Numbered from the stretch's first letter, positions 2,099 to 42,157 are shown. The stretch is DNA of 54,335 nt from Nemertoderma westbladi (GCA_032718475.1 JAUCBJ010003881.1:1-54335), one strand, 5' to 3'. Program-made: numbers and translations. Notes: generated by a model from the letters alone, not told the origin.

Positions 2099-2205
2099 TA
2101 AGGGGATGAAAATTTATATTCAATAAATGACCCCCCCCCCCCCCCCCCCCCCCCAAGCAATAATACAGAATAAACATTGAAGGAAAGATAAATTGGGGAA
2201 CTCAC

Positions 2206-2418
2206 CTTAAGGAAATCGACAAAGTCGTCGTATTTCTTTAGTTTTTCCGAATAAGCCAGAGCGTTCGAGTAGTTGAGACAGTAGCGTTGGTAAGCTGGGC
2301 AGACTTTAGCGGAAAACTTACTGAAAACATTGGCGATGCGTTGAGAACTTCCAAATTCTTCGGGTTTAACGTTCCGAAACATGTTGTGGAACATATCCGT
2401 GCACATAGAAGAGCTAAT
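2206..2418 (-). CDS. PLEKHG7: RhoGEF DH-domain exon (ISSSMCTDMF...YQRYCLNYSNALAYSEKLKKYDDFVDFLK)
   Basis: ttgcag| acceptor and AAG|gtgagt donor; 213 nt, phase 0/0; conserved DH motif YxxYCLNY. Confidence 0.92.
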
Positions 2419-5400
2419 CTGCAACCATTTAATGGATATTAAATAATTTAGTTTTTGGCATAAAACATTAATTATTTTAAATATTCTAACCTTTATCACC
2501 AACCCAATTAGTAAAGGCGTTTGAAACCCGACTATATAAGTATCATATATTTAACGTCTTATCTTTTAAACTTCACGGTTTCATTCAATACGGTAAGCCC
2601 TACTGTATAATGTGTTTTTCATAATAATAATTAAATAAACAATTGTATAGCGCCAACGTTACGGTATACAGTAGTATTCTGTGGCGCTAAGCAATCTCTG
2701 CGGAGCACAGTAGAGAAATTAGCTAAAATATGTTAAAATATACTGTACAGTATATAACCAATTAATTCTTCATATTTTTCATATATTTTTCACTTCCCGT
2801 TAATTTACATAACTTTAATGATCTGGGTTTAATTACCAATAAATTAATTATTAATTAAAATTACAACCAATTCTTCTTACTAATATTAATAATTCACTCA
2901 CTTGACACAATTCATCTAAATTGGCAAATAATTTTAGGGGTTCCATGTTAAGAAGAAATCCTTCGCATTGCACCATCTTGAGGGGCTCAAGGAACACCTG
3001 AAATACAGAAGATACATTTACGATAATGGCACTAGATGGCGCAAGTAATACAATTACTTCTATATTCCGTGTCTTTTGTAGGTTTTAATCAGCTGGTATT
3101 TGCGTCGAAATTTTCCCGTTGTATAGATATACTAGCAGGCAATACCCGAGGCATGTTACCCGGTATTTCCCGCTACCGGCATAGGCCTACTGGCGTACTG
3201 GTACCGGTATAGGCCTACTGACGTACCGGTACTTAGTACCGGTACCGAACGTGAATTAAACTTTACGAAAAGTGGCCTATAACGACCGCTGGTTAAAGTT
3301 ATACACACATGCCAAGTTCCCATTTACCACCGGGTTCACTTACATTCTTTAGTACCATTAAGTGATCGAGAAGGTAGTTTAGCTCGCTAGTAAAGATTTC
3401 CCAGGCGCATTCCCGTCGCTTAGATTCCAGTTCATCGCAACAGGAAGATGGACTACCGGGGGCGTCCAGACGACTCAACAAGTCATTCCAACGTTGACTC
3501 TAAATAAATAGTTAATATATAAACTGAAACTGGAGTTAAAGGTTAACAGCTAAACATTTCTTCGGCATGCTTTTAACATCATAAACTCGCAAAAATGCTT
3601 TCAGTGACTTGATGCCGCCAAGTCCAGTGAAGTTACACTCCAGAGTTCCATATAAGATAAGATACAAAACCAATGTGGCTCTAAAGCAAAATCATATCCT
3701 TATGGGAATAAACAACCCTTGAACAAATATGGTTGCATAACAGATAGTACTCACCTTACTGCTTTATTCCAACTGTCACCAAATAAGCATTTTGCGGCAA
3801 TACACAATAGTGTTGCCTTTATCATCATTTCTGTGGTACTATAATATGAATTATTTACTCAACTAACTCTTCAGTTAGAGGCAATTTATTACTTGGGAAT
3901 ACTCACTAGCTCATAATTATTAATTGAAAAACGTATTAGTGTAGTGCCTAATGGACTAGTAGGAAAGGAAAATAATTTAAATCACTGTGCTGGCTACAGT
4001 CGGAAGGGTACGCAGCAAACTTCGCCCGCGTCCAATCTTCGCCCGGAGCAATCTTCGCCCTCAAAATGTGCAACTATCGCCCGTCGGATACCTTCGCCCG
4101 TGAGCAACCTTCGCTCAATAAACAATTATTGTTTTGGTTAGAAAAAGCCGTCTCTGTAACCTGCTCCTTTCCCTCAATTAGTAACACCATCGTTTATTAT
4201 TTTGGTTAGAAAAATCCGTCTCTGTAACATGCTCCTTTCCCTCAATTAGTAACACCATCGTTTATTGTTTTGGTTAGAAAAATCCGTCTCTGTAACCTGC
4301 TCCTTTCCCTCAATTTGTTACTAAATGGTTACTAACACAAATCTTATTGGGCGAAGGTTGCTCGCGGGCGAAGATTGCCTTGCGGGCAAAGGTTTCCCCG
4401 GGCGATGGTTGCACGCGGGCAAGGGTTGGGCACGGACGAAGGATGTACACGGGCGAAGATTGCGCCCAACCGTTGGAAGGTGGCGAAAATTTTAATTAAA
4501 TCCCTGAATACAATAATGGGAGTCTAAATATAATTATAATTACTACAGAAATGAGTAGATTAATTAACACGAGCGGCAATACCTTTTAGTGCTTAGCGAG
4601 GTGTTCGTTGTTGGAGTTTATCAAGCTGATGTGTTGCGTAGCTTAGACTTAGGTTGGTATAACCAAAACAAAAAAACAATAATATATGATAAAGCAAACT
4701 CGGGTACACGTAGCCATTGATGAATTCATTGATAAATAGCTCTCACAAATCATTCAAACTGCCTCCAAATGATGACGTTTCCTATCCCATGTAGGTTCCA
4801 CATAAACAATTGTTGCAAGAACCCTCGTCGTTTGAGGCAAGGACTGACGGTGCATATATAATTCACGTGCTGCCTTCTCCTAATTCACGACTTACCTACT
4901 AATATATGCGTCCAACTGTTGACACTTTGAAAGCTCATTAAATATATCAAGTTTCCCAATTACAAAAAGAATTTCGAGTTTGTCGAGGACTTAGAGCTTT
5001 TCTTAAGGATTTTGATACATCCAAATTAAAAAAAAAAGTTTGACTCGGAGGCAGTGCGGACACAATCCGGAATCGATGTCTATCCCTGGGATATTTTATC
5101 GCAATAACAATGTGGCATGCCGTGCACCCTTCTCAACCCGCCGCAGGATAGAAGCTGGCAACCTGCTTAGAGGCAACGTAATTTCTCGATAATTACCAAG
5201 TATATTTTGCTCGCGGCAAGTGGGACATGAAAGGGGATATTTTCTTCTGCGAGAGTTTGCGTCCTGATTAGGACAGGAACCGATAAGACCAGCTGGTCGG
5301 CAAAACGATCGTCACTGGAATTAATCAGTGAATCTGAATTTTGCCAGAGATTCCTTGCGATGGAACAAAGGATCCGGGCGTTAAGGGATTACACAATGTA

Positions 5401-8400
5401 ATCAATAGATGCAAAACCTCAAATATATATCACCGATATGAGTCTCGCGCGAGGGATACAGATATTAAGCTGTATTCATTATAGTATTCCGTCGTGAGTT
5501 GATAGTATATGGATTATTTTGTGTAGCACACACTGGTTGTGGTGGTACGAACGACGCCGATAGGCACCAAGTAATACCGTTCGTTGTTCCCAGTAGTACA
5601 CGCCATGCACTCATGGAATGCATCTGCTAGATGAAGTGTAGTAGTGATACAAGGAATCTATCTCGGTTTGCTAATCCCCCCGCTGTAATACGGGTTGTTA
5701 TTATTTAAAAGAAGCCCCAGAAAAATTTGTGCATCAAAGCGTAATGTACAGCGCAAAACCTGTGCAGGTTGAATTCAAGTAGATTCCAATTTCTTACTTC
5801 CACGCTACATATAACTGGCGTTGAGTTTCTTCAAAATGACTTTTAGAACGATATATATTATATATCCATTTATTAATCAACAACTAATGAAAATATGTAA
5901 TCATCCCAACACCAGCTTGTAACGTGAAATAGTTACAAATATAGACCACAAAGCCTTTTTCTGAAGTCATGGTCCTTCCCCTGTTATATTTTTACAAATC
6001 TTCACCACATTGCTTGAAATTTGAAACACAACCAGTACAACTCAGTGTCGATGTCCACATTAAATTTTCAGAATATTAGATTTTGCCATTTAATTTTTAA
6101 TGAGCGTTTTAAAAAAAAGTATCGCGGCCATTCTTCACATTAGTTGTTGATTACATCATTAGAAAGCTTGCGTTCCAAACTTCGTCGAGATACAGTTAGC
6201 GTTCAAAAATTGCTAGAATTATAGTTAGATCTGGAGGCCATATATTATATTTAATAAATACACAAATGTTCTGGAACATTTTGTTGGTATGAATAGCTAC
6301 GCAATATAGATATTGCTAGATATACTAACAGTTGTTGCCCACCTACTCATATACCGAGACCAAAATATTGATTGGGCGAAGGGATGAGGGAGGGGGTCTC
6401 GTATGCGTGTTGGGTGGTATTCATTCGGCGGAGTTTATTCGGTATATGGCAAGAGGGTTCTTTATTGGTCGTGTCATACTTACTCGGTATATGGCAAGAG
6501 GGTTCTTTATTGGTAGTGTCATACTTATTCGGTATATGGCAAGAGGGTTCTTTATTGGTCGTGTCATACTTACTCGGTATATGGCAAGAGGGTTCTTTAT
6601 TGGTAGTGTCATACTTATTCGGTATATGACAAGAGGGTTCTTTATTGGTAGTGTCATACTTACTCGGTATATGACAAGAGGGTTCTTTATTGGTAGTGTC
6701 TTACTTACTCGGTATATGGCAAGAGGGTTCTTTATTGGTCGTGTCATACTTACTCGGTATATGGCAAGAGGGTTCTTTATTGGTAGTGTCATACTTACTC
6801 GGTATATGGCAAGAGGGTTCTTTATTGGTAGTGTCATACTTACTCGGTATATGGCAAGAGGGTTCTTTATTGGTCGTGTAATACTTACTCGGTATATGGC
6901 AAGATGGTTCTTTATTGGTAGTGTCATACTTATTCGGTATATGGCAAGAGGGTTCTTTATTGGTAGTGTCATACTTACTCGGTATATGGCAAGAGGGTTC
7001 TTTATTGGTATTTACTAACTCTATTTACACCATACTTACTCGGTATATCTCTGAGGTTACTTGTAAGAGAGAAGATCTTAAGATAGCCTACAAAGTTAAA
7101 ACCGAACAACCAACAACCGAAAACATTAACAAGGTTGAGAAAGCTAAGGACGATCTTAAATTGGCCTACAACATCAGCCAGGAAAAGTACATACAGGATA
7201 AAACTGAAGCAATTACAACTGCTCACATACAGCAACAATCAAGACTTACCTGGCAAACTGTAAATGAGGTATCTGGTCTTCACACCTGAGGGGACTTCAC
7301 ACCTGCCGAACTCCAAAGAAGCATTAAAAGCATGTCCAATAATAAAGCGAGTGGATTAGATGAAATCCCAGCGGAGGTATGGAAAACCGGAGTGCTAAAT
7401 AGACCATTATTGAATGTTTGCAACCGGATGTTAAAAGGGGAAAAGCCACCACAAATTTGGACTAAAGGTCAACTAAAGCCTCTCCCCAAGAAAGGAGACC
7501 TCGGCATACCAACAAACTATCGTGGGATCTGTCTGCTTGTGGTAGCTGCCAAAATATACAATAAAATGATTCTATATAGGATTAGGCCTCACATAGAGAA
7601 ACTACTGCATAAGAGCCAAAACGGATTTCGACCAAGTAGATCAACAATAGCTCAGATACTTGCACTACGGAGACTGATTGAAGGAATCAAGTCAAAGAAT
7701 CTTCCCGCAGTCATGACTTTTGTGGACTTCAAGAAGGCATTCGACTCCATCCATAGAGGTAAAATGCTTGAAATCCTAAGAGCTTATGGAATACCAGAAG
7801 TAATTGTTGCTGGCATTGGATTGCTATATTGTGACACAGAAGCGCAGGTACTCTCACCAGATGGTGAAACTGAGTTTTTCTCAATCCTGGCTGGCGTACT
7901 GCAAGGTGACACATTAGCACCATTACTATTTGTAATTGTGCTGGATTACGCAATGAGGACGGCCACAAAGGGTGAAGATCTGGGATTCACACTTCAAGAA
8001 CGCAGAAGTAGTAGATATCCGGCAACTACAGTCACAGACACCGACTTTGCGGATGACATCGCCCTGCTCTCTAATACGCTAGCAGATGCACAGCTTCTAC
8101 TAAATAAAGTGGAGAGGGCTGCTAAGGAGGTTGGATTGCATATAAATGCTACCAAGACCGAATTCATGACCTTTAGGGTCGTTCTCACAAAAAGTGGCCA
8201 AACTTTTATGTCAAAATGTCCATGCATTCGCACGGTTATATTTCCAAACGACACAGATTTAACCCCATGAACCTATATACCAATCGGAAGAGCGGAAATC
8301 TGCTCATATTACAGCAAATTTTCAACAGATTCCATTCACAACCTAGAGAATGACACCATTTCAAATATCGAAAATGCATGTTTTTTGAAATGTCACATTG

Positions 8401-11400
8401 AATTATTTTTAAGTATTTGGCTTCTGAGCTAAAGCAATGAAAGCAAAGGTTCCACATACCATACATCAAAATAAAGCAAATTTAATGCTCTTTCACATAC
8501 TATTGGTGGTTTTCAACCGAAGCTACTCACATTTTATATATTTACTATTTACTAACAATTAATTACGCCGTCACTAGGATTTTGTCCACCATGTAACGCT
8601 CGTTTTTATGACATGTTTTTTTTATATTTATTCACAACATCTCCAAGTGAGATATTTCTAAACGGCGATTTATTTAGCTATCAGCAGGTAAAAAAATTAT
8701 AAGAATTCGTTCATTAGAACTCGAGCGTTGTGCGAAAACGTAAATCTACATAAAATACCGTCATTAGGAATGTCCTCAATGTAACGCTACTTTGAATAGC
8801 AATAACTTTTGCTTTACTAATCACATCGACACCATTGAGGGCTCATATGAAAGAGCAATCGCAGATCTATCGAATCACATATTTGATTTTAATATAGTTT
8901 CAAAACAGACTATAGTCAACGCCATGCTAATGAAAAATGTCTTCAATGTCCATCATGTAACGCATGTAACGCTGTCACAATCAATAGCGTTACACTTGAG
9001 ACATGTCCATCATGTAACGTAGTTGGGCCTGAACATACCTAGCAGTACGAGTGGCGTTTCTTTTTACAAATTAGGCAGTCAGGGTCAAATTAACAATAGT
9101 CGATGGTTTCTGGTTTTCAGTATTTAGTATAAACTACTGTAGTAGTCTCATGAGTTTGTTTACGTTTCTTTATTTCGGTTCTAAAACAGTACTTCTTAAT
9201 CGTCATGCAATTACAATTGTCAAACGGAATTAAGCGTGTTGTGTCCGGTAAGAACTTCTCGATTGAATTTATAGTGATGGCGTTACACGTGAAGGACATA
9301 GAGATTAAGTTAGTGATGGCGTTACACGTGAAGGACTTAGAGATTAAGTTAGTGATGGCGTTACACGTGAAGGACTTAGAGATTAAGTTAGTGATGGCGT
9401 TACACGTGAAGGACTTAGTTACACGTGAAGGACTTAGAGAATACTTTAGTGATGGTTCTAAGGATTCCGTTAACTATTTTGTACAATTATTGTTACAATA
9501 GTATGTATATTCATATTGTATGTATACAATAATACAAACTAAATAATTTGCTGATTTGAAAAATATTATTTTCAGCCATTGGGTCGATAAATAAATCCGT
9601 AAAAAACCCGTATAAATATAAAATAAATCCGTACATGACATTAAAGTGACTGTTGAATTTCTGGTATATATTTTAAATGTCAAATCCTGGATACTGATTG
9701 GCTAACAAGTAGCGTTACATTCGAGACAACGAGTTAGATTGTGGGCGTTTTGTGAAATGAAGGCTGCTGATTGGCTAACAAGTAGCGTTACACCAGGGAC
9801 AAAATGTTACATTGTGGACATTAGTTTTTCGCGAATAAAACCTTACGACTTTACTAAATAAACGGCCCACTAGTGTATTCGAAATCGCCTCATCGAGTGC
9901 TCTCGAAATATGTATATATTTATATGGTTTTGACAAAAAAAAATTTGACAATTTTTCTCTCAAAATTTTGGCCACTTTTTGTGAGAACAACCCTTTAATG
10001 TTGATGGAAACTTGACAACCATTGATAATAATCAACTAAGGCAGGTCGATGACTTCCAGTACCTTGGATCATGGATAGAGAGTAGCAAAAAGGACATAGA
10101 AGTTAGGAAAGCAAAGGCTTGGGTAGCTCTATCAAAAATGGATACCATCTGGAAATCAGATCTCTCCAGGCACCTGAAGACCAAGTTCTTTCGAGCCACA
10201 GTGGAAAGTGTATTTTTATACGGGGGTGAGACCTGGACACTGACTAAATCACTTGAACAACGAATTGATGGTTGCTACACAAGACTACTAAGGGCAGCCC
10301 TAAACATCAGCTGGAGACAACACATGACAAACGCCGAGCTTTATGGTACAATACCACCTGTATCAACCACCCTCCGTGAACGCAGATTAAGATTCAGTGG
10401 GCACTGCTGGCGAAGTAAAGACGAGGTCATACCAGATCTACTTCTCTGGCAACCAACTCATGGAAAGCGTAGTCGTGGACGACCTGCCATAACATATATA
10501 GATCAACTTGAAAGGGATACTGAACTTGGGAGAAACGAAATTGCGACAACTATGGAGAATCGGGAAGCCTGGAAGGATCTCATTTCCACTGTCCGAGCTC
10601 GCTCGACCTAGTAGTAGTAGTACTCGGTATATGACAAGAGGGTTCTTTATTGGTAGTGTCATACTTACTCGGTATATGACAAGAGGGTTCTTTATTGGTA
10701 GTGTCATACTTACTCGGTATATGGCAAGAGGGTTCTTTATTGGTAGTGTCATACTTATTCGGTATATGACAAGAGGGTTCTTTATTGGTAGTGTCATACT
10801 TACTCGGTATATGACAAGAGGGTTCTTTATTGGTAGTGTCATACTTACTCGGTATATGGCAAGAGGGTTCTTTATTGGTAGTGTCATACTTATTCGGTAT
10901 ATGACAAGAGGGTTCTTTATTGGTAGTGTCATACTTACTCGGTATATGACAAGAGGGTTCTTTATTGGTAGTGTCATACTTACTCGGTATATGGCAAGAG
11001 GGTTCTTTATTGGTAGTGTCATACTTACTCGGTATATGACAAGAGGGTTCTTTATTGGTAGTGTCATACTTACTCGGTATATGACAAGAGGGTTCTTTAT
11101 TGGTCGTGTCATACTTACTCGGTATATGACAAGAGGGTTCTTTATTGGTAGTGTCATACTTACTCGGTATATGGCAAGAGGGTTCTTTATTGGTAGTGTC
11201 ATACTTACTCGGTATATGACAAGAGGGTTCTTTATTGGTAGTGTCATACTTACTCGGTATATGACAAGAGGGTTCTTTATTGGTAGTGTCATACTTATTC
11301 GGTATATGGCAAGAGGGTTCTTTATTGGTAGTGTCATACTTAGTCGGTATATGGCAAGAGGGTTCTTTATTGGTAGTGTCATACTTACTCGATATATGGC

Positions 11401-14400
11401 AAGAGGGTTCTTTATTGGTAGTGTCATACTTACTCGGTATATGGCAAGAGGGTTCTTTATTGGTAGTGTCATACTTACTCGGTATATGGCAAGAGGGTTC
11501 TTTATTGGTAGTGTCATACTTAGTCGGTATATGGCAAGAGGGTTCTTTATTGGTAGTGTCATACTTACTCGGTATATGGCAAGAGGGTTCTTTATTGGTA
11601 GTGTCATACTTACTCGGTATATGACAAGAGGGTTCTTTATTGGTAGTGTCATACTTACTCGGTATATGACAAGAGGGTTCTTTATTGGTAGTGTCATACT
11701 TACTCGGTATATGGCAAGAGGGTTCTTTATTGGTAGTGTCATACTTACTCGGTATATGACAAGAGGGTTCTTTATTGGTAGTGTCATACTTACTCGGTAT
11801 ATGACAAGAGGGTTCTTTATTGGTAGTGTCATACTTATTCGGTATATGGCAAGAGGGTTCTTTATTGGTAGTGTCATACTTAGTCGGTATATGGCAAGAG
11901 GGTTCTTTATTGGTAGTGTCATACTTACTCGATATATGGCAAGAGGGTTCTTTATTGGTAGTGTCATACTTACTCGGTATATGGCAAGAGGGTTCTTTAT
12001 TGGTAGTGTCATACTTACTCGGTATATGGCAAGAGGGTTCTTTATTGGTAGTGTCATACTTAGTCGGTATATGGCAAGAGGGTTCTTTATTGGTAGTGTC
12101 ATACTTACTCGGTATATGGCAAGAGGGTTCTTTATTGGTAGTGTCATACTTACTCGGTATATGACAAGAGGGTTCTTTATTGGTAGTGTCATACTTACTC
12201 GGTATATGACAAGAGGGTTCTTTATTGGTAGTGTCATACTTATTCGGTATATGGCAAGAGGGTTCTTTATTGGTAGTGTCATACTTAGTCGGTATATGGC
12301 AAGAGGGTTCTTTATTGGTAGTGTCATACTTACTCGGTATATGACAAGAGGGTTCTTTATTGGTAGTGTCATACTTACTCGGTATATGGCAAGAGGGTTC
12401 TTTATTGGTAGTGTCATACTTACTCGGTATATGACAAGAGGGTTCTTTATTGGTAGTGTCATACTTACTCGGTATATGACAAGAGGGTTCTTTATTGGTA
12501 GTGTCATACTTATTCGGTATATGGCAAGAGGGTTCTTTATTGGTAGTGTCATACTTAGTCGGTATATGGCAAGAGGGTTCTTTATTGGTAGTGTCATACT
12601 TACTCGATATATGGCAAGAGGGTTCTTTATTGGTAGTGTCATACTTACTCGGTATATGGCAAGAGGGTTCTTTATTGGTAGTGTCATACTTACTCGGTAT
12701 ATGGCAAGAGGGTTCTTTATTGGTAGTGTCATACTTAGTCGGTATATGGCAAGAGGGTTCTTTATTGGTAGTGTCATACTTACTCGGTATATGGCAAGAG
12801 GGTTCTTTATTGGTAGTGTCATACTTACTCGGTATATGACAAGAGGGTTCTTTATTGGTAGTGTCATACTTATTCGGTATATGGCAAGAGGGTTCTTTAT
12901 TGGTAGTGTCATACTTAGTCGGTATATGGCAAGAGGGTTCTTTATTGGTAGTGTCATACTTACTCGGTATATGACAAGAGGGTTCTTTATTGGTAGTGTC
13001 ATACTTACTCGGTATATGGCAAGAGGGTTCTTTATTGGTAGTGTCATACTTAGTCGGTATATGGCAAGAGGGTTCTTTATTGGTAGTGTCATACTTACTC
13101 GGTATATGGCAAGAGGGTTCTTTATTGGTAGTGTCATACTTACTCGGTATATGGCAAGAGGGTTCTTTATTGGTAGTGTCATACTTACTCGGTATATGGC
13201 AAGAGGGTTCTTTATTGGTAGTGTCATACTTAGTCGGTATATGGCAAGAGGGTTCTTTATTGGTAGTGTCATACTTACTCGGTATATGGCAAGAGGGTTC
13301 TTTATTGGTAGTGTCATACTTACTCGGTATATGGCAAGATGGTTCTTTATTGGTAGTGTCTTACTTACTCGGTATATGGCAAGAGGGTTCTTTATTGGTA
13401 GTGTCATACTTACTCGATATATGGCAAGAGGGTTCTTTATTGGTAGTGTCATACTTACTCGGTATATGGCAAGAGGGTTCTTTATTGGTAGTGTCATACT
13501 TAGTCGGTATATGGCAAGAGGGTTCTTTATTGGTAGTGTCATACTTACTCGGTATATGGCAAGAGGGTTCTTTATTGGTAGTGTCATACTTACTCGGTAT
13601 ATGGCAAGAGGGTTCTTTATTGGTAGTGTCATACTTACTCGGTATATGGCAAGATGGTTCTTTAATGGTCGTGTAATACTTACTCGGTATATGGCAACAG
13701 GGTTCTTTAATGGTAGTGTCATACTTACTCGGTATATGGCAAGAGGGTTCTTTATTGGTAGTGTCATACTTACTCGGTATATGGCAAGATGGTTCTTTAT
13801 TGGTCGTGTAATACTTACTCGGTATATGGCAACAGGGTTCTTTAATGGTAGTGTCATACTTACTAGGTATATGGCAAGAGGGTTCTTTATTGGTAGTGTC
13901 ATACTTACTCGGTATATGGCAAGATGGTTCTTTATTGGTCGTGTAATACTTACTCGATATATGGCAAGAGGGTTCTTTATTGGTAGTGTCATACTTACTC
14001 GGTATATGGCAAGATGGTTCTTTATTGGTCGTGTAATACTTACTCGGTATATGGCAAGATGGTTCTTTATTGGTAGTGTCATACTTATTCGGTATATGGC
14101 AAGAGGGTTCTTTATTGGTAGTGTCATACTTACTCGGTATATGGCAAGAGGGTTCTTTATTGGTCGTGTAATACTTACTCGGTATATGGCAAGATGGTTC
14201 TTTATTGGTCGTGTAATACTTACTCGGTATATGGCAACAGGGTTCTTTAATGGTAGTGTCATACTTACTCGGTATATGGCAAGAGGGTTCTTTATTGGTA
14301 GTGTCATACTTACTCGGTATATGGCAAGATGGTTCTTTATTGGTCGTGTAATACTTACTCGGTATATGGCAAGATGGTTCTTTATTGGTAGTGTCATACT

Positions 14401-17400
14401 TATTCGGTATATGGCAAGAGGGTTCTTTATTGGTAGTGTCATACTTACTCGGTATATGGCAAGATGGTTCTTTATTGGTCGTGTAATACTTACTCGGTAT
14501 ATGGCAAGATGGTTCTTTATTGGTCGTGTAATACTTACTCGGTATATGGCAAGGGGGTTCTTTAATGGTAGTGTCATACTTACTCGGTATATGGCAAGAG
14601 GGTTCTTTATTGGTAGTGTCATACTTACTCGGTATATGGCAAGATGGTTCTTTATTGGTCGTGTAATACTTACTCGATATATGGCAAGAGGGTTCTTTAT
14701 TGGTAGTGTCATACCTCCTCGATATATGGCAAGAGGGCTCTTTATTGGTAGTGTCATACTTAGTCGGTATATGGCAAGAGGGTTCTTTATTGGTAGTGTC
14801 ATACTTACTCGGTATATGGCAAGAGGGTTCTTTATTGGTAGTGTCATACTTACTCGGTATATGACAAGAGGGTTCTTTATTGGTAGTGTCATACTTACTC
14901 GGTATATGGCAAGAGGGTTCTTTATTGGTAGTGTCATACTTACTCGGTATATGGCAAGAGGGTTCTTTATTGGTAGTGTCATACTTACTCGGTATATGGC
15001 AAGAGGGTTCTTTATTGGTAGTGTCATACTTAGTCGGTATATGGCAAGAGGGTTCTTTATTGGTAGTGTCATACTTACTCGGTATATGGCAAGAGGGTTC
15101 TTTATTGGTAGTGTCATACTTACTCGGTATATGACAAGAGGGTTCTTTATTGGTAGTGTCATACTTACTCGGTATATGACAAGAGGGTTCTTTATTGGTA
15201 GTGTCATACTTACTCGGTATATGGCAAGAGGGTTCTTTATTGGTAGTGTCATACTTACTCGGTATATGACAAGAGGGTTCTTTATTGGTAGTGTCATACT
15301 TACTCGGTATATGACAAGAGGGTTCTTTATTGGTAGTGTCATACTTATTCGGTATATGGCAAGAGGGTTCTTTATTGGTAGTGTCATACTTAGTCGGTAT
15401 ATGGCAAGAGGGTTCTTTATTGGTAGTGTCATACTTACTCGATATATGGCAAGAGGGTTCTTTATTGGTAGTGTCATACTTACTCGGTATATGGCAAGAG
15501 GGTTCTTTATTGGTAGTGACATACTTACTCGGTATATGGCAAGATGGTTCTTTATTGGTAGTGTCATACTTATTCGGTATATGGCAAGAGGGTTCTTTAT
15601 TGGTAGTGTCATACTTACTCGGTATATGGCAAGATGGTTCTTTATTGGTCGTGTAATACTTACTCGGTATATGGCAAGGGGGTTCTTTATTGGTAGTGTC
15701 ATACTTACTCGGTATATGGCAAGATGGTTCTTTATTGGTAGTGTCATACTTATTCGGTATATGGCAAGAGGGTTCTTTATTGGTAGTGTCATACTTACTC
15801 GGTATATGGCAAGATGGTTCTTTATTGGTAGTGTCATACTTATTCGGTATATGGCAAGAGGGTTCTTTATTGGTAGTGTCTTACTTACTCGGTATATGGC
15901 AAGAGGGTTCTTTATTGGTAGTGTCATACTTACTCGGTATATGGCAAGATGGTTCTTTATTGGTAGTGTCATACTTACTCGGTATATGGCAAGAGGGTTC
16001 TTTATTGGTCGTGTCATACTTACTCGGTATATGGCAAGAGGGTTCTTTATTGGTAGTGTCATAATTACTCGGTATATGGCAAGATGGTTCTTTATTGGTA
16101 GTGTCATACTTACTCGGTATATGGCAAGATGGTTCTTTATTGGTAGTGTCATACTTATTCGGTATATGGCAAGAGGGTTCTTTATTGGTAGTGTCATACT
16201 TACTCGGTATATGGCAAGGGGGTTCTTTATTGGTAGTGTCATACTTATTCGGTATATGGCAAGAGGGTTCTTTATTGGTAGTGTCATACTTACTCGGTAT
16301 ATGGCAAGAGGGTTCTTTATTGGTAGTGTCATACTTACTCGGTATATGGCAAGGGGGTTCTTTATTGGTAGTGTCATACTTATTCGGTATATGGCAAGAT
16401 GGTTCTTTATTGGTAGTGTCATACTTATTCGGTATATGGCAAGAGGGTTCTTTATTGGTAGTGTCATACTTACTCGGTATATGGCAAGGGGGTTCTTTAT
16501 TGGTAGTGTCATACTTATTCGGTATATGGCAAGAGGGTTCTTTATTGGTAGTGTCATACTTACTCGGTATATGGCAAGAGGGTTCTTTATTGGTAGTGTC
16601 ATACTTACTCGGTATATGGCAAGAGGGTTCTTTATTGGTAGTGTCATACTTACTCGGTATATGGCAAGGGGGTTCTTTATTGGTAGTGTCATACTTACTC
16701 GGTATATGGCAAGAGGGTTCTTTATTGGTAGTGTCATACTTACTCGGTATATGGCAAGAGGGCTCTTTATTGGTAGTGTCATACTTACTCGGTATATGGC
16801 AAGAGGGCTCTTTATTGGTAGTGTCATACTTAGTCGGTATATGGCAAGAGGGTTCTTTATTGGTCGTGTCATACTTACTCGGTATATGACAAGAGGGTTC
16901 TTTATTGGTAGTGTCATACTTACTCGGTATATGACAAGAGGGTTCTTTATTGGTAGTGTCATACTTATTCGGTATATGGCAAGAGGGTTCTTTATTGGTA
17001 GTGTCATACTTAGTCGGTATATGGCAAGAGGGTTCTTTATTGGTAGTGTCATACTTACTCGGTATATGACAAGAGGGTTCTTTATTGGTAGTGTCATACT
17101 TACTCGGTATATGGCAAGAGGGTTCTTTATTGGTAGTGTCATACTTAGTCGGTATATGGCAAGAGGGTTCTTTATTGGTAGTGTCATACTTACTCGGTAT
17201 ATGGCAAGAGGGTTCTTTATTGGTAGTGTCATACTTACTCGGTATATGGCAAGAGGGTTCTTTATTGGTAGTGTCATACTTACTCGGTATATGGCAAGAG
17301 GGTTCTTTATTGGTAGTGTCATACTTAGTCGGTATATGGCAAGAGGGTTCTTTATTGGTAGTGTCATACTTACTCGGTATATGGCAAGAGGGTTCTTTAT

Positions 17401-20400
17401 TGGTAGTGTCATACTTACTCGGTATATGGCAAGATGGTTCTTTATTGGTAGTGTCTTACTTACTCGGTATATGGCAAGAGGGTTCTTTATTGGTAGTGTC
17501 ATACTTACTCGATATATGGCAAGAGGGTTCTTTATTGGTAGTGTCATACTTACTCGGTATATGGCAAGAGGGTTCTTTATTGGTAGTGTCATACTTACTC
17601 GGTATATGGCAAGAGGGTTCTTTATTGGTAGTGTCATACTTACTCGGTATATGGCAAGAGGGTTCTTTATTGGTAGTGTCATACTTACTCGGTATATGGC
17701 AAGAGGGTTCTTTATTGGTAGTGTCATACTTACTCGGTATATGACAAGAGGGTTCTTTATTGGTAGTGTCATACTTACTCGGTATATGGCAAGAGGGTTC
17801 TTTATTGGTAGTGTCATACTTAGTCGGTATATGGCAAGAGGGTTCTTTATTGGTAGTGTCATACTTACTCGGTATATGACAAGAGGGTTCTTTATTGGTA
17901 GTGTCATACTTACTCGGTATATGGCAAGAGGGTTCTTTATTGGTAGTGTCATACTTAGTCGGTATATGGCAAGAGGGTTCTTTATTGGTAGTGTCATACT
18001 TACTCGGTATATGACAAGAGGGTTCTTTATTGGTAGTGTCATACTTACTCGGTATATGACAAGAGGGTTCTTTATTGGTAGTGTCATACTTACTCGGTAT
18101 ATGACAAGAGGGTTCTTTATTGGTAGTGTCATACTTATTCGGTATATGGCAAGAGGGTTCTTTATTGGTAGTGTCATACTTAGTCGGTATATGGCAAGAG
18201 GGTTCTTTATTGGTAGTGTCATACTTACTCGGTATATGACAAGAGGGTTCTTTATTGGTAGTGTCATACTTACTCGGTATATGGCAAGAGGGTTCTTTAT
18301 TGGTAGTGTCATACTTAGTCGGTATATGGCAAGAGGGTTCTTTATTGGTAGTGTCATACTTACTCGGTATATGGCAAGAGGGTTCTTTATTGGTAGTGTC
18401 ATACTTACTCGGTATATGGCAAGAGGGTTCTTTATTGGTAGTGTCATACTTACTCGGTATATGGCAAGAGGGTTCTTTATTGGTAGTGTCATACTTAGTC
18501 GGTATATGGCAAGAGGGTTCTTTATTGGTAGTGTCATACTTACTCGGTATATGGCAAGAGGGTTCTTTATTGGTAGTGTCATACTTACTCGGTATATGGC
18601 AAGATGGTTCTTTATTGGTAGTGTCTTACTTACTCGGTATATGGCAAGAGGGTTCTTTATTGGTAGTGTCATACTTACTCGATATATGGCAAGAGGGTTC
18701 TTTATTGGTAGTGTCATACTTACTCGGTATATGGCAAGAGGGTTCTTTATTGGTAGTGTCATACTTACTCGGTATATGGCAAGAGGGTTCTTTATTGGTA
18801 GTGTCATACTTACTCGGTATATGGCAAGAGGGTTCTTTATTGGTAGTGTCATACTTACTCGGTATATGGCAAGATGGTTCTTTATTGGTCGTGTAATACT
18901 TACTCGGTATATGGCAACAGGGTTCTTTAATGGTAGTGTCATACTTACTCGGTATATGGCAAGAGGGTTCTTTATTGGTAGTGTCATACTTATTCGGTAT
19001 ATGGCAAGATGGTTCTTTATTGGTCGTGTAATACTTACTCGATATATGGCAAGAGGGTTCTTTATTGGTAGTGTCATACTTACTCGGTATATGGCAAGAT
19101 GGTTCTTTATTGGTCGTGTAATACTTACTCGGTATATGGCAAGATGGTTCTTTATTGGTAGTGTCATACTTATTCGGTATATGGCAAGAGGGTTCTTTAT
19201 TGGTAGTGTCATACTTACTCGGTATATGGCAAGAGGGTTCTTTATTGGTCGTGTAATACTTACTCGGTATATGGCAAGATGGTTCTTTATTGGTCGTGTA
19301 ATACTTACTCGGTATATGGCAACAGGGTTCTTTAATGGTAGTGTCATACTTACTCGGTATATGGCAAGAGGGTTCTTTATTGGTAGTGTCATACTTACTC
19401 GGTATATGGCAAGATGGTTCTTTATTGGTCGTGTAATACTTACTCGGTATATGGCAAGATGGTTCTTTATTGGTAGTGTCATACTTATTCGGTATATGGC
19501 AAGAGGGTTCTTTATTGGTAGTGTCATACTTACTCGGTATATGGCAAGATGGTTCTTTATTGGTCGTGTAATACTTACTCGGTATATGGCAAGATGGTTC
19601 TTTATTGGTCGTGTAATACTTACTCGGTATATGGCAACAGGGTTCTTTAATGGTAGTGTCATACTTACTCGGTATATGGCAAGAGGGTTCTTTATTGGTA
19701 GTGTCATACTTACTCGGTATATGGCAAGATGGTTCTTTATTGGTCGTGTAATACTTACTCGATATATGGCAAGAGGGTTCTTTATTGGTAGTGTCATACT
19801 TACTCGGTATATGGCAAGATGGTTCTTTATTGGTCGTGTAATACTTACTCGGTATATGGCAAGATGGTTCTTTATTGGTAGTGTCATACTTATTCGGTAT
19901 ATGGCAAGAGGGTTCTTTATTGGTAGTGTCATACTTACTCGGTATATGGCAAGAGGGTTCTTTATTGGTAGTGTCATACTTACTCGGTATATGACAAGAG
20001 GGTTCTTTATTGGTAGTGTCATACTTACTCGGTATATGGCAAGAGGGTTCTTTATTGGTAGTGTCATACTTAGTCGGTATATGGCAAGAGGGTTCTTTAT
20101 TGGTAGTGTCATACTTACTCGGTATATGGCAAGAGGGTTCTTTATTGGTAGTGTCATACTTACTCGGTATATGGCAAGAGGGTTCTTTATTGGTAGTGTC
20201 ATACTTAGTCGGTATATGGCAAGAGGGTTCTTTATTGGTAGTGTCATACTTACTCGGTATATGGCAAGAGGGTTCTTTATTGGTAGTGTCATACTTACTC
20301 GGTATATGGCAAGAGGGTTCTTTATTGGTAGTGTCATACTTACTCGGTATATGGCAAGAGGGTTCTTTATTGGTAGTGTCATACTTACTCGGTATATGGC

Positions 20401-23400
20401 AAGAGGGTTCTTTATTGGTAGTGTCATACTTACTCGGTATATGGCAAGAGGGTTCTTTATTGGTAGTGTCATACTTACTCGGTATATGGCAAGATGGTTC
20501 TTTATTGGTAGTGTCTTACTTACTCGGTATATGGCAAGAGGGTTCTTTATTGGTAGTGTCATACTTACTCGATATATGGCAAGAGGGTTCTTTATTGGTA
20601 GTGTCATACTTACTCGGTATATGGCAAGAGGGTTCTTTATTGGTAGTGTCATACTTACTCGGTATATGGCAAGAGGGTTCTTTATTGGTAGTGTCATACT
20701 TACTCGGTATATGGCAAGAGGGTTCTTTATTGGTAGTGTCATACTTACTCGGTATATGGCAAGATGGTTCTTTATTGGTCGTGTAATACTTACTCGGTAT
20801 ATGGCAACAGGGTTCTTTAATGGTAGTGTCATACTTACTCGGTATATGGCAAGAGGGTTCTTTATTGGTAGTGTCATACTTATTCGGTATATGGCAAGAT
20901 GGTTCTTTATTGGTCGTGTAATACTTACTCGATATATGGCAAGAGGGTTCTTTATTGGTAGTGTCATACTTACTCGGTATATGGCAAGATGGTTCTTTAT
21001 TGGTCGTGTAATACTTACTCGGTATATGGCAAGATGGTTCTTTATTGGTAGTGTCATACTTATTCGGTATATGGCAAGAGGGTTCTTTATTGGTAGTGTC
21101 ATACTTACTCGGTATATGGCAAGAGGGTTCTTTATTGGTCGTGTAATACTTACTCGGTATATGGCAAGATGGTTCTTTATTGGTCGTGTAATACTTACTC
21201 GGTATATGGCAACAGGGTTCTTTAATGGTAGTGTCATACTTACTCGGTATATGGCAAGAGGGTTCTTTATTGGTAGTGTCATACTTACTCGGTATATGGC
21301 AAGATGGTTCTTTATTGGTCGTGTAATACTTACTCGGTATATGGCAAGATGGTTCTTTATTGGTAGTGTCATACTTATTCGGTATATGGCAAGAGGGTTC
21401 TTTATTGGTAGTGTCATACTTACTCGGTATATGGCAAGATGGTTCTTTATTGGTCGTGTAATACTTACTCGGTATATGGCAAGATGGTTCTTTATTGGTC
21501 GTGTAATACTTACTCGGTATATGGCAACAGGGTTCTTTAATGGTAGTGTCATACTTACTCGGTATATGGCAAGAGGGTTCTTTATTGGTAGTGTCATACT
21601 TACTCGGTATATGGCAAGATGGTTCTTTATTGGTCGTGTAATACTTACTCGATATATGGCAAGAGGGTTCTTTATTGGTAGTGTCATACTTACTCGGTAT
21701 ATGGCAAGATGGTTCTTTATTGGTCGTGTAATACTTACTCGGTATATGGCAAGATGGTTCTTTATTGGTAGTGTCATACTTATTCGGTATATGGCAAGAG
21801 GGTTCTTTATTGGTAGTGTCATACTTACTCGGTATATGGCAAGATGGTTCTTTATTGGTCGTGTAATACTTACTCGGTATATGGCAAGGGGGTTCTTTAT
21901 TGGTAGTGTCATACTTACTCGGTATATGGCAAGAGGGTTCTTTATTGGTAGTGTCTTACTTACTCGGTATATGGCAAGATGGTTCTTTATTGGTAGTGTC
22001 ATACTTATTCGGTATATGGCAAGGGGGTTCTTTATTGGTAGTGTCATACTTACTCGGTATATGGCAAGATGGTTCTTTATTGGTAGTGTCATACTTATTC
22101 GGTATATGGCAAGAGGGTTCTTTATTGGTAGTGTCATACTTATTCGGTATATGGCAAGATGGTTCTTTATTGGTAGTGTCATACTTACTCGGTATATGGC
22201 AAGATGGTTCTTTATTGGTCGTGTAATACTTACTCGGTATATGGCAAGGGGGTTCTTTATTGGTAGTGTCATACTTACTCGGTATATGGCAAGATGGTTC
22301 TTTATTGGTAGTGTCATACTTATTCGGTATATGGCAAGAGGGTTCTTTATTGGTAGTGTCATACTTACTCGGTATATGGCAAGATGGTTCTTTATTGGTC
22401 GTGTAATACTTACTCGGTATATGGCAAGGGGGTTCTTTATTGGTAGTGTCATACTTACTCGGTATATGGCAAGAGGGTTCTTTATTGGTAGTGTCTTACT
22501 TACTCGGTATATGGCAAGAGGGTTCTTTATTGGTAGTGTCATACTTACTCGGTATATGGCAAGATGGTTCTTTATTGGTAGTGTCATACTTATTCGGTAT
22601 ATGGCAAGAGGGTTCTTTATTGGTAGTGTCATACTTACTCGGTATATGGCAAGAGGGTTCTTTATTGGTAGTGTCATACTTACTCGGTATATGGCAAGGG
22701 GGTTCTTTATTGGTAGTGTCATACTTACTCGGTATATGGCAAGATGGTTCTTTATTGGTAGTGTCATACTTATTCGGTATATGGCAAGGGGGTTCTTTAT
22801 TGGTAGTGTCATACTTACTCGGTATATGGCAAGATGGTTCTTTATTGGTAGTGTCATACTTATTCGGTATATGGCAAGATGGTTCTTTATTGGTAGTGTC
22901 ATACTTATTCGGTATATGGCAAGGGGGTTCTTTATTGGTAGTGTCATACTTACTCGGTATATGGCAAGATGGTTCTTTATTGGTAGTGTCATACTTATTC
23001 GGTATATGGCAAGGGGGTTCTTTATTGGTAGTGTCATACTTACTCGGTATATGGCAAGAGGGTTCTTTATTGGTAGTGTCATACTTACTCGGTATATGGC
23101 AAGGGGGTTCTTTATTGGTAGTGTCATACTTACTCGGTATATGGCAAGAGGGTTCTTTATTGGTAGTGTCATACTTACTCGGTATATGGCAAGATGGTTC
23201 TTTATTGGTAGTGTCATACTTATTCGGTATATGGCAAGAGGGTTCTTTATTGGTAGTGTCTTACTTACTCGGTATATGGCAAGAGGGTTCTTTATTGGTA
23301 GTGTCATACTTACTCGGTATATGGCAAGATGGTTCTTTATTGGTAGTGTCATACTTACTCGGTATATGGCAAGAGGGTTCTTTATTGGTCGTGTCATACT

Positions 23401-26400
23401 TACTCGGTATATGGCAAGAGGGTTCTTTATTGGTAGTGTCATACTTACTCGGTATATGGCAAGATGGTTCTTTATTGGTAGTGTCATACTTACTCGGTAT
23501 ATGGCAAGATGGTTCTTTATTGGTAGTGTCATACTTATTCGGTATATGGCAAGAGGGTTCTTTATTGGTAGTGTCATACTTACTCGGTATATGGCAAGGG
23601 GGTTCTTTATTGGTAGTGTCATACTTATTCGGTATATGGCAAGAGGGTTCTTTATTGGTAGTGTCATACTTACTCGGTATATGGCAAGAGGGTTCTTTAT
23701 TGGTAGTGTCATACTTACTCGGTATATGGCAAGGGGGTTCTTTATTGGTAGTGTCATACTTATTCGGTATATGGCAAGATGGTTCTTTATTGGTAGTGTC
23801 ATACTTATTCGGTATATGGCAAGAGGGTTCTTTATTGGTAGTGTCATACTTACTCGGTATATGGCAAGGGGGTTCTTTATTGGTAGTGTCATACTTATTC
23901 GGTATATGGCAAGAGGGTTCTTTATTGGTAGTGTCATACTTACTCGGTATATGGCAAGAGGGTTCTTTATTGGTAGTGTCATACTTACTCGGTATATGGC
24001 AAGGGGGTTCTTTATTGGTAGTGTCATACTTATTCGGTATATGGCAAGAGGGTTCTTTATTGGTAGTGTCATACTTACTCGGTATATGGCAAGATGGTTC
24101 TTTATTGGTAGTGTCATACTTATTCGGTATATGGCAAGAGGGTTCTTTATTGGTAGTGTCATACTTACTCGGTATATGGCAAGAGGGTTCTTTATTGGTA
24201 GTGTCATACTTACTCGGTATATGGCAAGATGGTTCTTTATTGGTAGTGTCATACTTATTCGGTATATGGCAAGAGGGTTCTTTATTGGTAGTGTCATACT
24301 TACTCGGTATATGGCAAGATGGTTCTTTATTGGTAGTGTCATACTTATTCGGTATATGGCAAGAGGGTTCTTTATTGGTAGTGTCTTACTTACTCGGTAT
24401 ATGGCAAGAGGGTTCTTTATTGGTAGTGTCATACTTACTCGGTATATGGCAAGATGGTTCTTTATTGGTAGTGTCATACTTATTCGGTATATGGCAAGAG
24501 GGTTCTTTATTGGTAGTGTCATACTTACTCGGTATATGGCAAGATGGTTCTTTATTGGTAGTGTCATACTTATTCGGTATATGGCAAGAGGGTTCTTTAT
24601 TGGTAGTGTCATACTTACTCGGTATATGGCAAGAGGGTTCTTTATTGGTCGTGTCATACTTACTCGGTATATGGCAAGAGGGTTCTTTATTGGTAGTGTC
24701 ATACTTACTCGGTATATGGCAAGATGGTTCTTTATTGGTAGTGTCATACTTACTCGGTATATGGCAAGAGGGTTCTTTATTGGTCGTGTCATACTTACTC
24801 GGTATATGGCAAGAGGGTTCTTTATTGGTAGTGTCATACTTACTCGGTATATGGCAAGAGGGTTCTTTATTGGTAGTGTCTTTAACGATGCCATTGTTAA
24901 CCCAAGAGCTTTGTTTTGATAGTCTTTGTTCATCACTTTGGATTTGAGGACAGACCAGGCCGATCTATTCTTAACTTTGTCTAAATTAATAATAAAAATA
25001 TCATATTTGGTTATTAAATGAGACAATATACGGTGGGTAATGTATAAAATAATGTAAACAACCTAAAATAACTAGAACGCCACCAAGATGGCTTTAAACG
25101 AACCTGTCTTACACAGACTCCAAGAAACAGATGGGATTGGAAGATACAAACCAAGAATGACTTGCATCAACCAAACAAACTGCCTCCCATCGAATGTAAT
25201 ACAAATTCGCCGAGGCAAACAAATCATAATCACAATTACTGCGATGTGTCTCCTATGAAAGTATGTGAAATCTTCCATTAAGTCTACCCAACAGCCGTTG
25301 GTACCCGGCCGGCAGCCACCCTGGTTCAGTTTTCTGGTTTTGTTAGTTTAATCGACAGCTGTTGTAAACGTCCCAGATATACAAAACCTACTAAGCCTTT
25401 ACAGTTGAGCTTAGCCTGAGTTGATGATAGTATTATAACGATGACAATAGGCTCTATAGATACATACGATATATAAATGATATTGTACTGCTTAACATTA
25501 CACTAACTGACTGAATAGAGATAGAACAATAATTAACGATATAATTAATATACGTAACGCCAATTGACAATAATAAGTAGTGAAATGTTGTTCAGCTGTA
25601 AAAGTGTAGTTGTGAGTATTTAATTTCGCGTTCCATAATGTTGACAATATGCTAATATTTCGAATATCGCACATCGAATCGTTCCCAACTTTTTTATTCA
25701 ACAACTAGATACTAATTGATAAATATTCGCGTTTACAATTTTTGCGTACCTGCTTGAGTGTTTGAGATGTTGGATTGTTTGGTTATACACACATACATAA
25801 CCACATCGTGTTTTTGAACGACTCAACTCTTGACAACAACTACCCAGTCTAAAGACAGGCTTGTTATAAAGAGAAGCATTACATAAATGTCGGATCAAAA
25901 AAAGTAGCAATGTTTTTATTTTTCATAAAATAGATAATTCCCCATAACATATTGGTCTAGTGTGATTGGCCAGTAAATAGGATATTAGTAGACTTCGTAG
26001 AATAATTGCAAGTTGCTGGGGATACTAGGGGATTTTGGGACACATATCATTGGGACATTGAGCCTACATGGAATTAAGCCCACACATCATTGGGACATTG
26101 AGCCTACATGGAATTAAGCCCACACATATCATTGGGACATTGAGCCTACATGGAATTAAGCCCACACATATCATTGGGACATTGAGCCTACATGGAATTA
26201 AGCCCACACATATCATTGGGACATTGAGCCTACATGGAGTTAAGCCCACACATATCATTGGGACATTGAGCCTACATGGAATTAAGCCCACCCATTGAGC
26301 ATACATGGAATTAAGCCCACACATTGAGCCTACATGGAATTAAGCCCACACATTGAGCCTACATGGAATTAAGCCCACTCATTGAGCCTACATGGAATTA

Positions 26401-29400
26401 AGCCCACACATTGAGCCTACATGGAATTAAGCCCACACATTGAGCCTACATGGAATTAAGCCCACACATTGAGCCTACATGGAATGAAGCCCACACATTG
26501 AGCCTACATGGAATGAAGCCCACACATTGAGCCTACATGGAATTAAGCCCACACATTGAGCCTACATGGAATTAAGCCCACACATTGAGCCTACATGGAA
26601 TTAAGCACACACATTGAGCCTACATGGAATTAAGCCCACACATTGAGCCTACATGGAATTAAGCCCACACATTGAGCCTACATGGAATTAAGCCCACACA
26701 TTGAGCCTACATGGAATTAAGCCCACACATTGAGCCTACATGGAATGAAGCCCACACATTGAGCCTACATGGAATGAAGCCCACACATTGAGCCTACATG
26801 GAATTAAGCCCACACATTGAGCCTACATGGAATTAAGCCCACACATTGAGCCTACATGGAATTAAGCCCACACATTGAGCCTACATGGAATTAAGCCCAC
26901 ACATTGAGCCTACATGGAATTAAGCCCACACATTGAGCCTACATGGAATTAAGCCCACACATTGAGCCTACATGGAATTAAGCCCACACATTGAGCCTAC
27001 ATGGAATTAAGCCCACACATTGAGCCTACATGGAATTAAGCCCACACATTGAGCCTACATGGAATTAAGCCCACACATTGAGCCTATATGGAATTAATCC
27101 CACACATTGAGCCTACATGGAATTAAGCCCACACATTGAGCCTACATGGAATTAAGCCCACACATTGAGCCTACATGGAATTAAGCCCACACATTGAGCC
27201 TACATGGAATTAAGCCCACACATTGAGCCTACATGGAATGAAGCCCACACATTGAGCCTACATGGAATTAAGCCCACACATTGAGCCTACATGGAATTAA
27301 GCCCACACATTGAGCCTACATGGAATTAAGCCCACACATTGAGCCTATATGGAATTAATCCCACACATTGAGCCTACATGGAATTAAGCCCACACATTGA
27401 GCCTACATGGAATTAAGCCCACACATTGAGCCTACATGGAATTAAGCCCACACATTGAGCCTACATGGAATGAAGCCCACACATTGAGCCTACATGGAAT
27501 TAAGCCCACACATTGAGCCTACATGGAATTAAGCCCACACATTGAGCCTACATGGAATTAAGCCCACACATTGAGCCTATATGGAATTAATCCCACACAT
27601 TGAGCCTACATGGAATTAAGCCCACACATTGAGCCTACATGGAATTAAGCCCACACATTGAGCCTACATGGAATTAAGCCCACACATTGAGCCTACATGG
27701 AATTAAGCCCACACATTGAGCCTACATGGAATGAAGCCCACACATTGAGCCTACATGGAATTAAGCCCACACATAAATCTCTTGTTTAGCTCTTCCTTTA
27801 CATAGGGATAGACGGGATGGCGCTTGCGATTTTGGTTATGTGGGCACATCGCACCCCCCCCCCCCCCCCATCCATAGTAACAGTGATTGCTGGATGGCTA
27901 AGTGTCTTTGGACTCAACACCATAACTTACTCATAGGAATTGGCTGACAGTTGTACTTACTCTCACTCAAGCCGGTACATTAAATGGTATACTGTGCAGT
28001 ACAACGATAATAATGCGCATAGCAGACAATCACTTTCAACCTTCACTTTAATTAAATGAATTACAATTGACAGGAAAGGAATACACCGAGGCTTATCTAT
28101 ACAAACTGTCAATGGCTGCCATCTTATCATCACGTTTTATTAACACTGCCCTCCTTACCAACACAACTGAGGCTTTATTATAAAACCACCTAATTTATAT
28201 TATATTAATTTAGTGGCACATGAAAAGTGGACTACTGAGATAACATTAGCTACTATAAGATTATTTCGAATCCACAAATCCAATTTTCATCTTCCACTAT
28301 ATAATATATTTAAATATTAATATATAAGTTGGAAAATATAGTTGTTCGGAAAAAAGTGTGGGACAGGAAAAACTTTCAATTGAACAAGGTTAGGTTTCAG
28401 GTTTGTGCTAATTGTCAGATTTGTCAATTGGTGCTAATAAAGGGAGGGAGAGGGGGGGGGATACTTAGTAAGCAAAGAGCTAAATTTGCTGATTTATGTT
28501 ATTCATTCATTTCATTTGCACGGCATACGGCCGCCCCGGCAGGCTATAATTAAAACGGTCAATAATCAAAAAAATAAATCAATAAATCAGTAAATCAATA
28601 AAACAATAAATCAATAAAAGTCAGGTCACTCAAAGACACCATGGTGATAGTTAGCTCTGTGTGTACCTAGTCATGAGTTATTATTGTGTGGTTGATTTTT
28701 CGATTCCATAAAAATCAAGGATACATTCATGCCTTACGTGGTTTTTTGAGTTGATGTTGTTTAGGATACTATTTAAAAACAGCGCATTGAAAATGTCCTT
28801 ATATTTGGCTGTTGGCTTGTTGCGTTCTTTCGCATTCTTTATGGTATGTTTGGTGCTGTAGGATGCCGTTACTAGGCTGGTTACGCGTGGTAGTCCGTAA
28901 ATCCACGACGCAGCGTTGTAGTCATCAAATAGGGGGTCTTTATATATATTAAGGCTATGCTGCGCTAGAAGCCAGGCGAAGAGGTATATTATTTTTGGAT
29001 TGCGAGAGTTGAAAGCACTGTATATGATCCTACATTTGTTGTATGCCACTAGGGATGATAGGGTTTCTTGTCCTAGGAGAAGGTACAGGGTATTGTTGGA
29101 TACGTAATTTTTGACACCTAATATTGATCTCATAGCCTTTCGAAAAATGACTTCAAAATCGTTGGTGATAGCATCTGTGTAATTTGCTGTTCCATATAGG
29201 ATTGATGGGGTGCAAATGGTTTTCCATATGGTCTTCGTAACTATCAGGGGCACATCAGAAGTTGATAACCCCCGGTTCTTTAATCGCGCCACATTCCACC
29301 AGCACCTTTTGACGAAGTTGTCTTTTAGGCTGTCCTGAGTTAAGGGGAAGGGCAGTCCTAGGTATCGACAACTATTTTCGTGTTCTAGGGTAGTGTGACC

Positions 29401-40980: not shown

Positions 40981-42157
40981 GTATGGAACCGGATAGAATG
41001 GGACCGGATAGTGTAGAACCGGATAGTGTAGAACCGGATAGTTTAGAACCGGATAGTGTAGAACCGGATAGTGTGGAATCGGATAGTGTAGAACCGGATA
41101 GTGTAGAACCGGATAGTGTAGAACCGGATAGTGTAGAACCAGATAGTGTGGAATCGGATAGTGTAGAACCGGATAATGTAGAACCGGATAGTGTAGAACC
41201 GGATAGTGTGAAATCGGATAGTGTAGAACCGGATAGTGTAGAACCGGATAGTATGGAACCGGATAGTGTAGAACCGGATAGTGTAGAACCGGATAGTATG
41301 GAACCGGATAGTGTAGAACCGGATAGTGTAGAACCGCATAGTGTAGAACCAGATAGTGTAGAACCGGATAGTGTAGAACCGGATAGTGTAGAACAAGATA
41401 GTGTAGAACCGGATATTGTAGAAACTGATAGTGTAGAACCGGATAGTGTAGAACCGGATAGTGTAGAACCGGAAAGTGTAGAACCGGATAGTGTAGAACC
41501 GGATAGTGTAGAACCGGATAGTGTGGAATCGGATAGTGTAGAACCGGATAGTGTAGAACCAGATAGTGTAGAACCGGATCGTGTAGAACCGGATAGTGTA
41601 GAACCGGATAGTGTAGAACCGGATAATGTAGAACCGGATAGTATAGAACCGGATAGTGTAGAACCGGATAGTATAGAACCGGATAGTGTGGAATCGGATA
41701 GTGTAGAACCGGATAGTGTGGAATCGGATAGTGTAGAACTGGATAGTGTAGAACCGGATAGTGTGGAACCGGATAGTGTAGAACCGGATAGAATGGGACA
41801 GGATAGTGTAGAACCGGATAGTGTAGAACCGGATAGTGTAGAACCGGATAGTGTAGAACCAGATAGTGTAGAACCGGATAGTGTGGAATCGGATAGTGTA
41901 GAACCGGATAGTGTGGAATCGGATAGTGTAGAACTGGATAGTGTAGAACCGGATAGTGTGGAACCGGATAGTGTAGAACCGGATAGAATGGGACAGGATA
42001 GTGTAGAACCGGATAGTGTAGAACCGGATAGTGTAGAACCGGATAGTGTAGAACCAGATAGTGTAGAACCGGATAATGTGGAATCGGATAGTGTAGAACC
42101 GGATAGTGTAGAACCGGATAGAGTGGTTCTTAGTGTAGAACTGGATAGTGTAGAACC
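40981..42157. repeat. 15-bp minisatellite (ccggatagtgtagaa), ~78 copies
   Basis: Direct inspection; a 195-bp higher-order duplication is marked by gaatgggaca at 41791 and 41986. Confidence 0.97.

Follow-up and report, generated by a model that had tools for sequence, protein, structure and literature searches.

An intron of a RhoGEF gene of Nemertoderma westbladi begins with a 45-bp minisatellite of about 329 copies (14.8 kb). The array is a boundary-spanning minisatellite of the "mirage" or F7 type: the first unit spans the exon–intron boundary, the splice signal is reiterated, and it is intact in many units. Very probably, we are dealing with an intronic minisatellite lying across the boundary between exon B and its intron, spliced out from the first donor in one assembled transcript, and likely due to neutral repeat growth. 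The window is the whole stretch of DNA analyzed (54,335 nt, GCA_032718475.1, JAUCBJ010003881.1:1-54335), and all positions refer to it (Table 1).

Table 1. Positions of the array, of the inserted elements and of the host-gene exons in the window
Feature	Position	Strand	Evidence or remarks
Exon E, DH domain	2206–2418	-	Pfam RhoGEF E 9.7e-06 and homolog search
Exon D, DH domain	2902–2997	-	
Exon C, phase-0 acceptor at 3499, start of DH region	3344–3499	-	X4 downstream loose end = 3470–3499; tblastn of homologs
Distal array remnant	6435–7039	-	One damaged unit, 12 full units, 10 intact donors
5′-truncated LINE, reverse transcriptase, short TAG-repeat tail, inserted in array	7049–10620	+	RVT_1 E 1.2e-34; ORFs; duplication
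DNA element nested in LINE	8176–9993	.	~27-bp terminal inverted repeats, 4-bp flank duplication
Main array, 316 x 45 bp	10624–24843	-	1 true + 239 extra GTAAGT donors; mean 2.3% from consensus
Exon B, 137 nt, AG acceptor, GTAAGT donor	24844–24980	-	Exactly covered by X4 contig, one other letter
Exon B 3′ tail, last 37 nt = exonic part of repeat unit	24844–24880	-	Ends at donor in use
Exon A (upstream coding exon, RhoGEF gene)	36683–36843	-	Upstream loose end of X4 contig maps 36683 onward; aligns with homologs

Tandem Repeats Finder places the 45-bp array at 10621–24880, with a second piece at 6435–7010. The unit consists of the last 37 exonic nt and the first 8 intronic nt, and its consensus is identical to the tail of exon B. 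A 20-mer of the unit has 328 matches against none in 100 shuffles and, thus, the repeat is not explained by chance. Divided into units starting at the donor, the main block (316 units, with ~13 further copies past the LINE) contains no indel and resolves into 26 unit types. These sit in nested ordered blocks, with unit types recurring in blocks of 12–32 units (one 32-unit block is present twice, 42 units apart), as expected from unequal exchange. The duplicated blocks and the mean difference of 2.3% from the consensus reveal unit turnover and concerted evolution.

The GTAAGT is kept at 240 of the 316 main unit starts, the true donor included, and is lost in 76 (about one quarter): the +1 G is replaced in 74 units (by A in 49 and by C in 25) and two further units are otherwise damaged. 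Main block and distal copies together contain 249 intact extra GTAAGT donors. No other position of the unit is changed as often as the +1 G, which has undergone two independent changes. Among 17 changes, five fall at donor positions +1 to +6 (P 0.07) and three at the GT (nominal P 0.04, post hoc). A selective erosion of the donors is not accepted, because the statistics are post hoc and donors 2–6, the five extra ones closest to the exon, are intact and identical to donor 1; the excess of changes at the GT weakly suggests that the neutrality of the donors is incomplete. The first-pass annotation had described an exon ending in a GTAAGT donor, a unit made of 37 exonic nt plus the start of the intron, a donor kept in most copies, and a main block free of indels and stops; each of these points agrees with the present counts, and exon B is exactly covered by a transcript contig.

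The LINE forms a 3.6-kb insert with a 12-bp target-site duplication (7037–7048 and 10621–10632). The DNA element nested in it contains a 39-bp tandem repeat (9272–9418). On the far side of the LINE, 11 of the 12 full units of the remnant have exact counterparts among the main-block unit types. The unit adjoining the 5′ end of the LINE (6979–7039) carries 20 unrelated bases in place of four unit bases. The exon frame hits a stop at 10440 and, since the LINE cuts the array, the ~13 distal copies are out of frame with exon B. The ~330-fold in-frame array of the first-pass annotation is, therefore, correct in its number of copies but not in the frame of the last ~13.

The reality of the array can be judged on contig depths. 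In the DNA run X2, the unique part of the exon has a depth of 28 versus a repeat peak of 19,181 summed over ~110 short contigs. The corresponding estimate is 180–360 copies after correction for contig overlap (with contigs assumed to be 40–60 nt) or 718 uncorrected, but a contig depth is no true copy number and is taken as "hundreds" only. Runs X1 and X3 have zero depth on the unique exon bins, and the copy estimate rests on X2. Hundreds of copies in a DNA run argue for a real array. Both X2 and X4 have a common substitution at 24934 that is absent from the window and are, thus, not mere copies of the assembled haplotype. The overlap of the exit contigs with the repeat is ~30 nt, too short to tell an allele without the array from one that has it. 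It is hardly credible that the array is an assembly artefact or grossly over-expanded. The X2 depths (roughly 180–360 copies), the end of the unique X2 contig at 24853, where the repeat starts, the 26 unit types in nested blocks, and the LINE with its target-site duplication all speak against an artefact, the length of 14.8 kb being that in the assembly.

The frame of exon B is open over the main block, with no stop in 4,740 codons. Four of the 135 possible single changes of the unit give a stop and, among the 17 distinct changes present, none does (P = 0.60 for no stop). One antisense frame of the array is likewise stop-free over 4,753 codons. The open frame is, thus, expected without selection, because the unit is mostly in-frame exon, few changes lead to stops, and an antisense frame is open as well. 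As controls, in 5,000 trials random intronic 45-mers in tandem left a given frame free of stops 45% of the time, and the unrelated 15-bp array at 40986–42158 has two of six frames stop-free (~390 codons). A priori, about one unit length in three would be divisible by three. On the antisense, random 45-mer, and 15-bp array controls, the open frame is rejected as a sign of translation; the unit-change counts and these controls support the caveat, already attached to the in-frame array, that the frame may follow from a stop-free unit plus homogenization. Purifying selection on the encoded peptide is not apparent, with 15 amino-acid changing versus 2 silent changes (4.3 silent expected), at the low power given by 17 changes. 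For annotation, this is a warning that a 4,740-codon open frame arising from repeat arithmetic need not be protein.

The host gene appears to be a PLEKHG7-like RhoGEF, as judged by its DH domain and its closest relatives. The last exon of the gene identified in the window is exon E, and the domain seen is DH; the Pfam RhoGEF score of exon E alone is 26.3 bits, under the 27.6 cut-off. A protein search with exon E gives 25 matches at E ≤ 0.001. The eight matches with names checked belong to a lancelet, a hemichordate, echinoderms, a clam (mollusc), and cnidarians, and several of these eight are named PLEKHG7-like or PLEKHG5-like. Both DH and PH domains are present in all three homologs scanned. 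The region modeled has 37–52% identity to the homologs. A word-indexed protein search with exon C (a weak search) gave two candidates, none at E ≤ 0.01. Upstream of exon A, 38452–38507 (minus strand, 56 nt, AG..GT) is a likely additional exon in frame into exon A; it would encode an Arg-rich stretch resembling the RRxS motif of the homologs.

Twelve of the 25 matches (those with at least 421 residues) were aligned with the five-exon model spliced at the first donor, and 11 rows cover the B/C junction. The spacing between an aromatic residue and a conserved Trp is that of the model in 10 of them, with two extra residues in the other one, and a 15-residue insert or repeat at the junction is absent from all 11. 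These PLEKHG7-like DH-PH RhoGEFs (lancelet, hemichordate, echinoderms, molluscs, cnidarians) share the B/C spacing of the host gene in 10 of the 11 rows, and none of the rows has the 15-residue repeat encoded by the array.

Run X4 is labeled "DNA?" and is taken as RNA (transcriptome) from its behavior; it was available as contigs only. One contig, 5,426 nt long and with a depth of 221, covers exactly exon B, leaves the upstream intron flank without cover, and has loose ends in exons A and C. This cover and the loose ends indicate that exon A is spliced onto exon B, and exon B from donor 1 onto the acceptor at 3499, so that an intron of 21,344 nt is removed; the use of exon B in transcripts, a condition of the first-pass annotation, is in this way confirmed. 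The contig runs unbroken through the 37 nt shared with the repeat. As far as this assembled contig from one run goes, the authentic donor is the main one used in the mRNA. No repeat unit is present in the main X4 contig, which speaks, for this one run of contigs, against units in mature mRNA (as expected of a coding VNTR).

Two X4 records only fall on 24799–25060. The second is a repeat-only contig of 75 nt (depth 82, two other letters), which has no loose end toward an exon and differs from consensus unit 1. Its length would suit a single variant unit closed into a loop (45 + 30, with a word length of 31), such as the interior of the array would yield in nascent RNA or in stray DNA. Its depth, spread over 329 copies, comes to ~0.25-fold each. 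Were all words of the repeat contig from mature mRNA, with none lost, the upper bound would be ~0.37 extra units per mRNA. Run X4 holds 0.60 of the words of 2200–3520, above the exon share, and some intronic sequence is, thus, present. No ladder junction is seen in the X4 contigs (one run, in which contigs drop rare variants); a short contig leading from a variant unit to exon C could escape the X4 mapping, and the individual behind X4 may differ in the first units of the array.

These data bear on a short ladder, in which donors 2–4 would be used often enough to yield RhoGEF forms with one to three extra 15-residue repeats, ~28 residues before the DH domain, regulated or functional. The predicted exon lengths would be 182, 227, and 272 nt. 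Such a ladder is unlikely, although it agrees with the kept frame, with donors 2–6 intact and identical to donor 1, with the repeat words at depth 82 in X4, and with the use of two pseudo-donors in human 6-16 and CBS (accessible text of PMC1557585). Against it stand the main contig, unbroken across the shared 37 nt, the X4 repeat contig, which is not consensus unit 1 and has no link to exon C, the bound of ~0.37 units per mRNA, the unit variants without protein-level constraint, and the 11 homolog rows without insert. A major ladder is unlikely, and a minor in-frame use of donors is possible; since the product is in frame, a possible slight use of donors 2–4 would be tolerated, not selected. 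The tunable exon-length ladder of the first-pass annotation finds no support in this evidence: donor 1 is used in the X4 contig, there is no protein constraint, and no insert occurs in the homologs aligned.

The surroundings are rich in satellites, and eight arrays longer than 500 bp account for 43% of the window. In the intron preceding exon A (36844–38451), a 26-bp satellite takes up nearly everything, from just past the donor to 35 nt before the acceptor. Five other unrelated minisatellites occur at 26040–27774, 39143–40632, 40986–42158, 43524–45437, and 53264–54181 (periods 29/42, 31, 15, 30, and 52). Upstream of exon B, 25070–25900 is a high-copy interspersed repeat with a summed depth of up to 135,000 in the DNA runs. 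Open frames at 29680–30180 (minus strand), as judged by eye, resemble another reverse-transcriptase fragment.

The most economical account is, thus, that of a neutral satellite, in which one of the many intronic satellites of the gene would have been seeded across the donor and then have grown. A 45-bp tandem duplication across the donor would have been the seed. Slippage and unequal exchange would then have expanded and homogenized the array, like the other satellites in the introns of the gene, and the LINE would have landed later near the distal end. During splicing, the 137-nt exon is probably recognized starting at its 3′ splice site, and the spliceosome then probably settles on the nearest upstream donor; the copies downstream would be passed over by exon definition or oriented scanning, by analogy with human F7.

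In the accessible text of PMC1557585, minisatellites with a first monomer spanning an exon–intron boundary are described in F7, 6-16, CBS, lamin B2, and PDGF. Splicing of F7 minigenes takes place, at any copy number, from the functional donor lying farthest upstream. The authentic donor alone is used in F7, lamin B2, and PDGF, whereas 6-16 and CBS use the next two pseudo-donors too, which is not seen here (same text). The 37-bp VNTR of human F7 intron 7 has, like the present array, a boundary-spanning first monomer and reiterated identical donors, of which the most upstream is used; but it contains 5–9 copies with 4 exonic nt (PMC1557585), whereas the present array has ~329, with 37 exonic nt in a unit that is in frame. 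The minisatellites of human 6-16, CBS IVS13, lamin B2, and PDGF show the same anatomy with 10–26 copies and use of the authentic donor, and the present array is ~10 times longer in copies (PMC1557585, same portion).

In invertebrates, the lancelet "mirages" (Adh3, troponin C, the globins BflGb6/BflGb9, PGBD5) are similar tandem duplications of exon–intron boundaries with concerted evolution, reported in the accessible parts of PMC3087553 and PMC3902484 not to disturb splicing; the globin mirage there has 3–6 units, whereas the present array reaches 14.8 kb and is split by a LINE. The accessible portion of PMC10078293 contains no matching case, and a literature search with few subscription papers within reach found no larger published donor array. 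The array is, thus, ordinary in kind, and it stands out by its size (~10 times that of the published cases compared) and by an AATAAA in nearly every unit. The first-pass annotation held that either of its readings, the ladder or a decoy U1-binding array in which the first donor must win, would be unusual. The choice of the first among identical repeated donors is, however, published for F7 (PMC1557585, accessible text). The first donor is the one used in the X4 contig; a decoy array with a function is very improbable.

An AATAAA is present in 305 of the 316 main units and an ATTAAA in the other 11, 17 nt past the donor position, for a total of ~320 hexamers across the array, a feature absent from the first-pass annotation. 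The presence of a full-length contig shows that mRNA is made despite any premature cleavage. Of 11 positions of the U1-pairing consensus, the donor matches 9, against 7 for the four other donors checked. One could, thus, imagine a functional array in which ~250 strong U1 sites shield the ~320 AATAAA, slow splicing, or soak up U1, with array length tuning output. The strength of the donor, its coupling in almost every unit to a hexamer downstream, and telescripting, an established process in the accessible literature, point in that direction; but the AATAAA is merely three exon codons copied along, the donor is gone from one quarter of the units while the hexamer persists, and monomer number is without effect on donor choice in F7 minigenes (PMC1557585, accessible text), which makes such a function very improbable. 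A broader version, also improbable, would see each unit as a self-shielding cassette (a strong U1 site plus a poly(A) hexamer), with array length as a heritable dial on U1 loading, on premature polyadenylation, and on a minor in-frame ladder of +15 residues just upstream of DH. A demonstrated effect of array length on splicing or output would make the array a regulatory VNTR of a new kind.

With the preferred reading, that of an intronic minisatellite spliced out from its first donor, the first-donor rule of F7 is extended from fewer than 10 copies in minigenes to a natural gene of an invertebrate, with ~250 identical strong donors spread over 14 kb. The array offers a test case for exon definition versus proximity models and for U1 protection against ~320 poly(A) hexamers.
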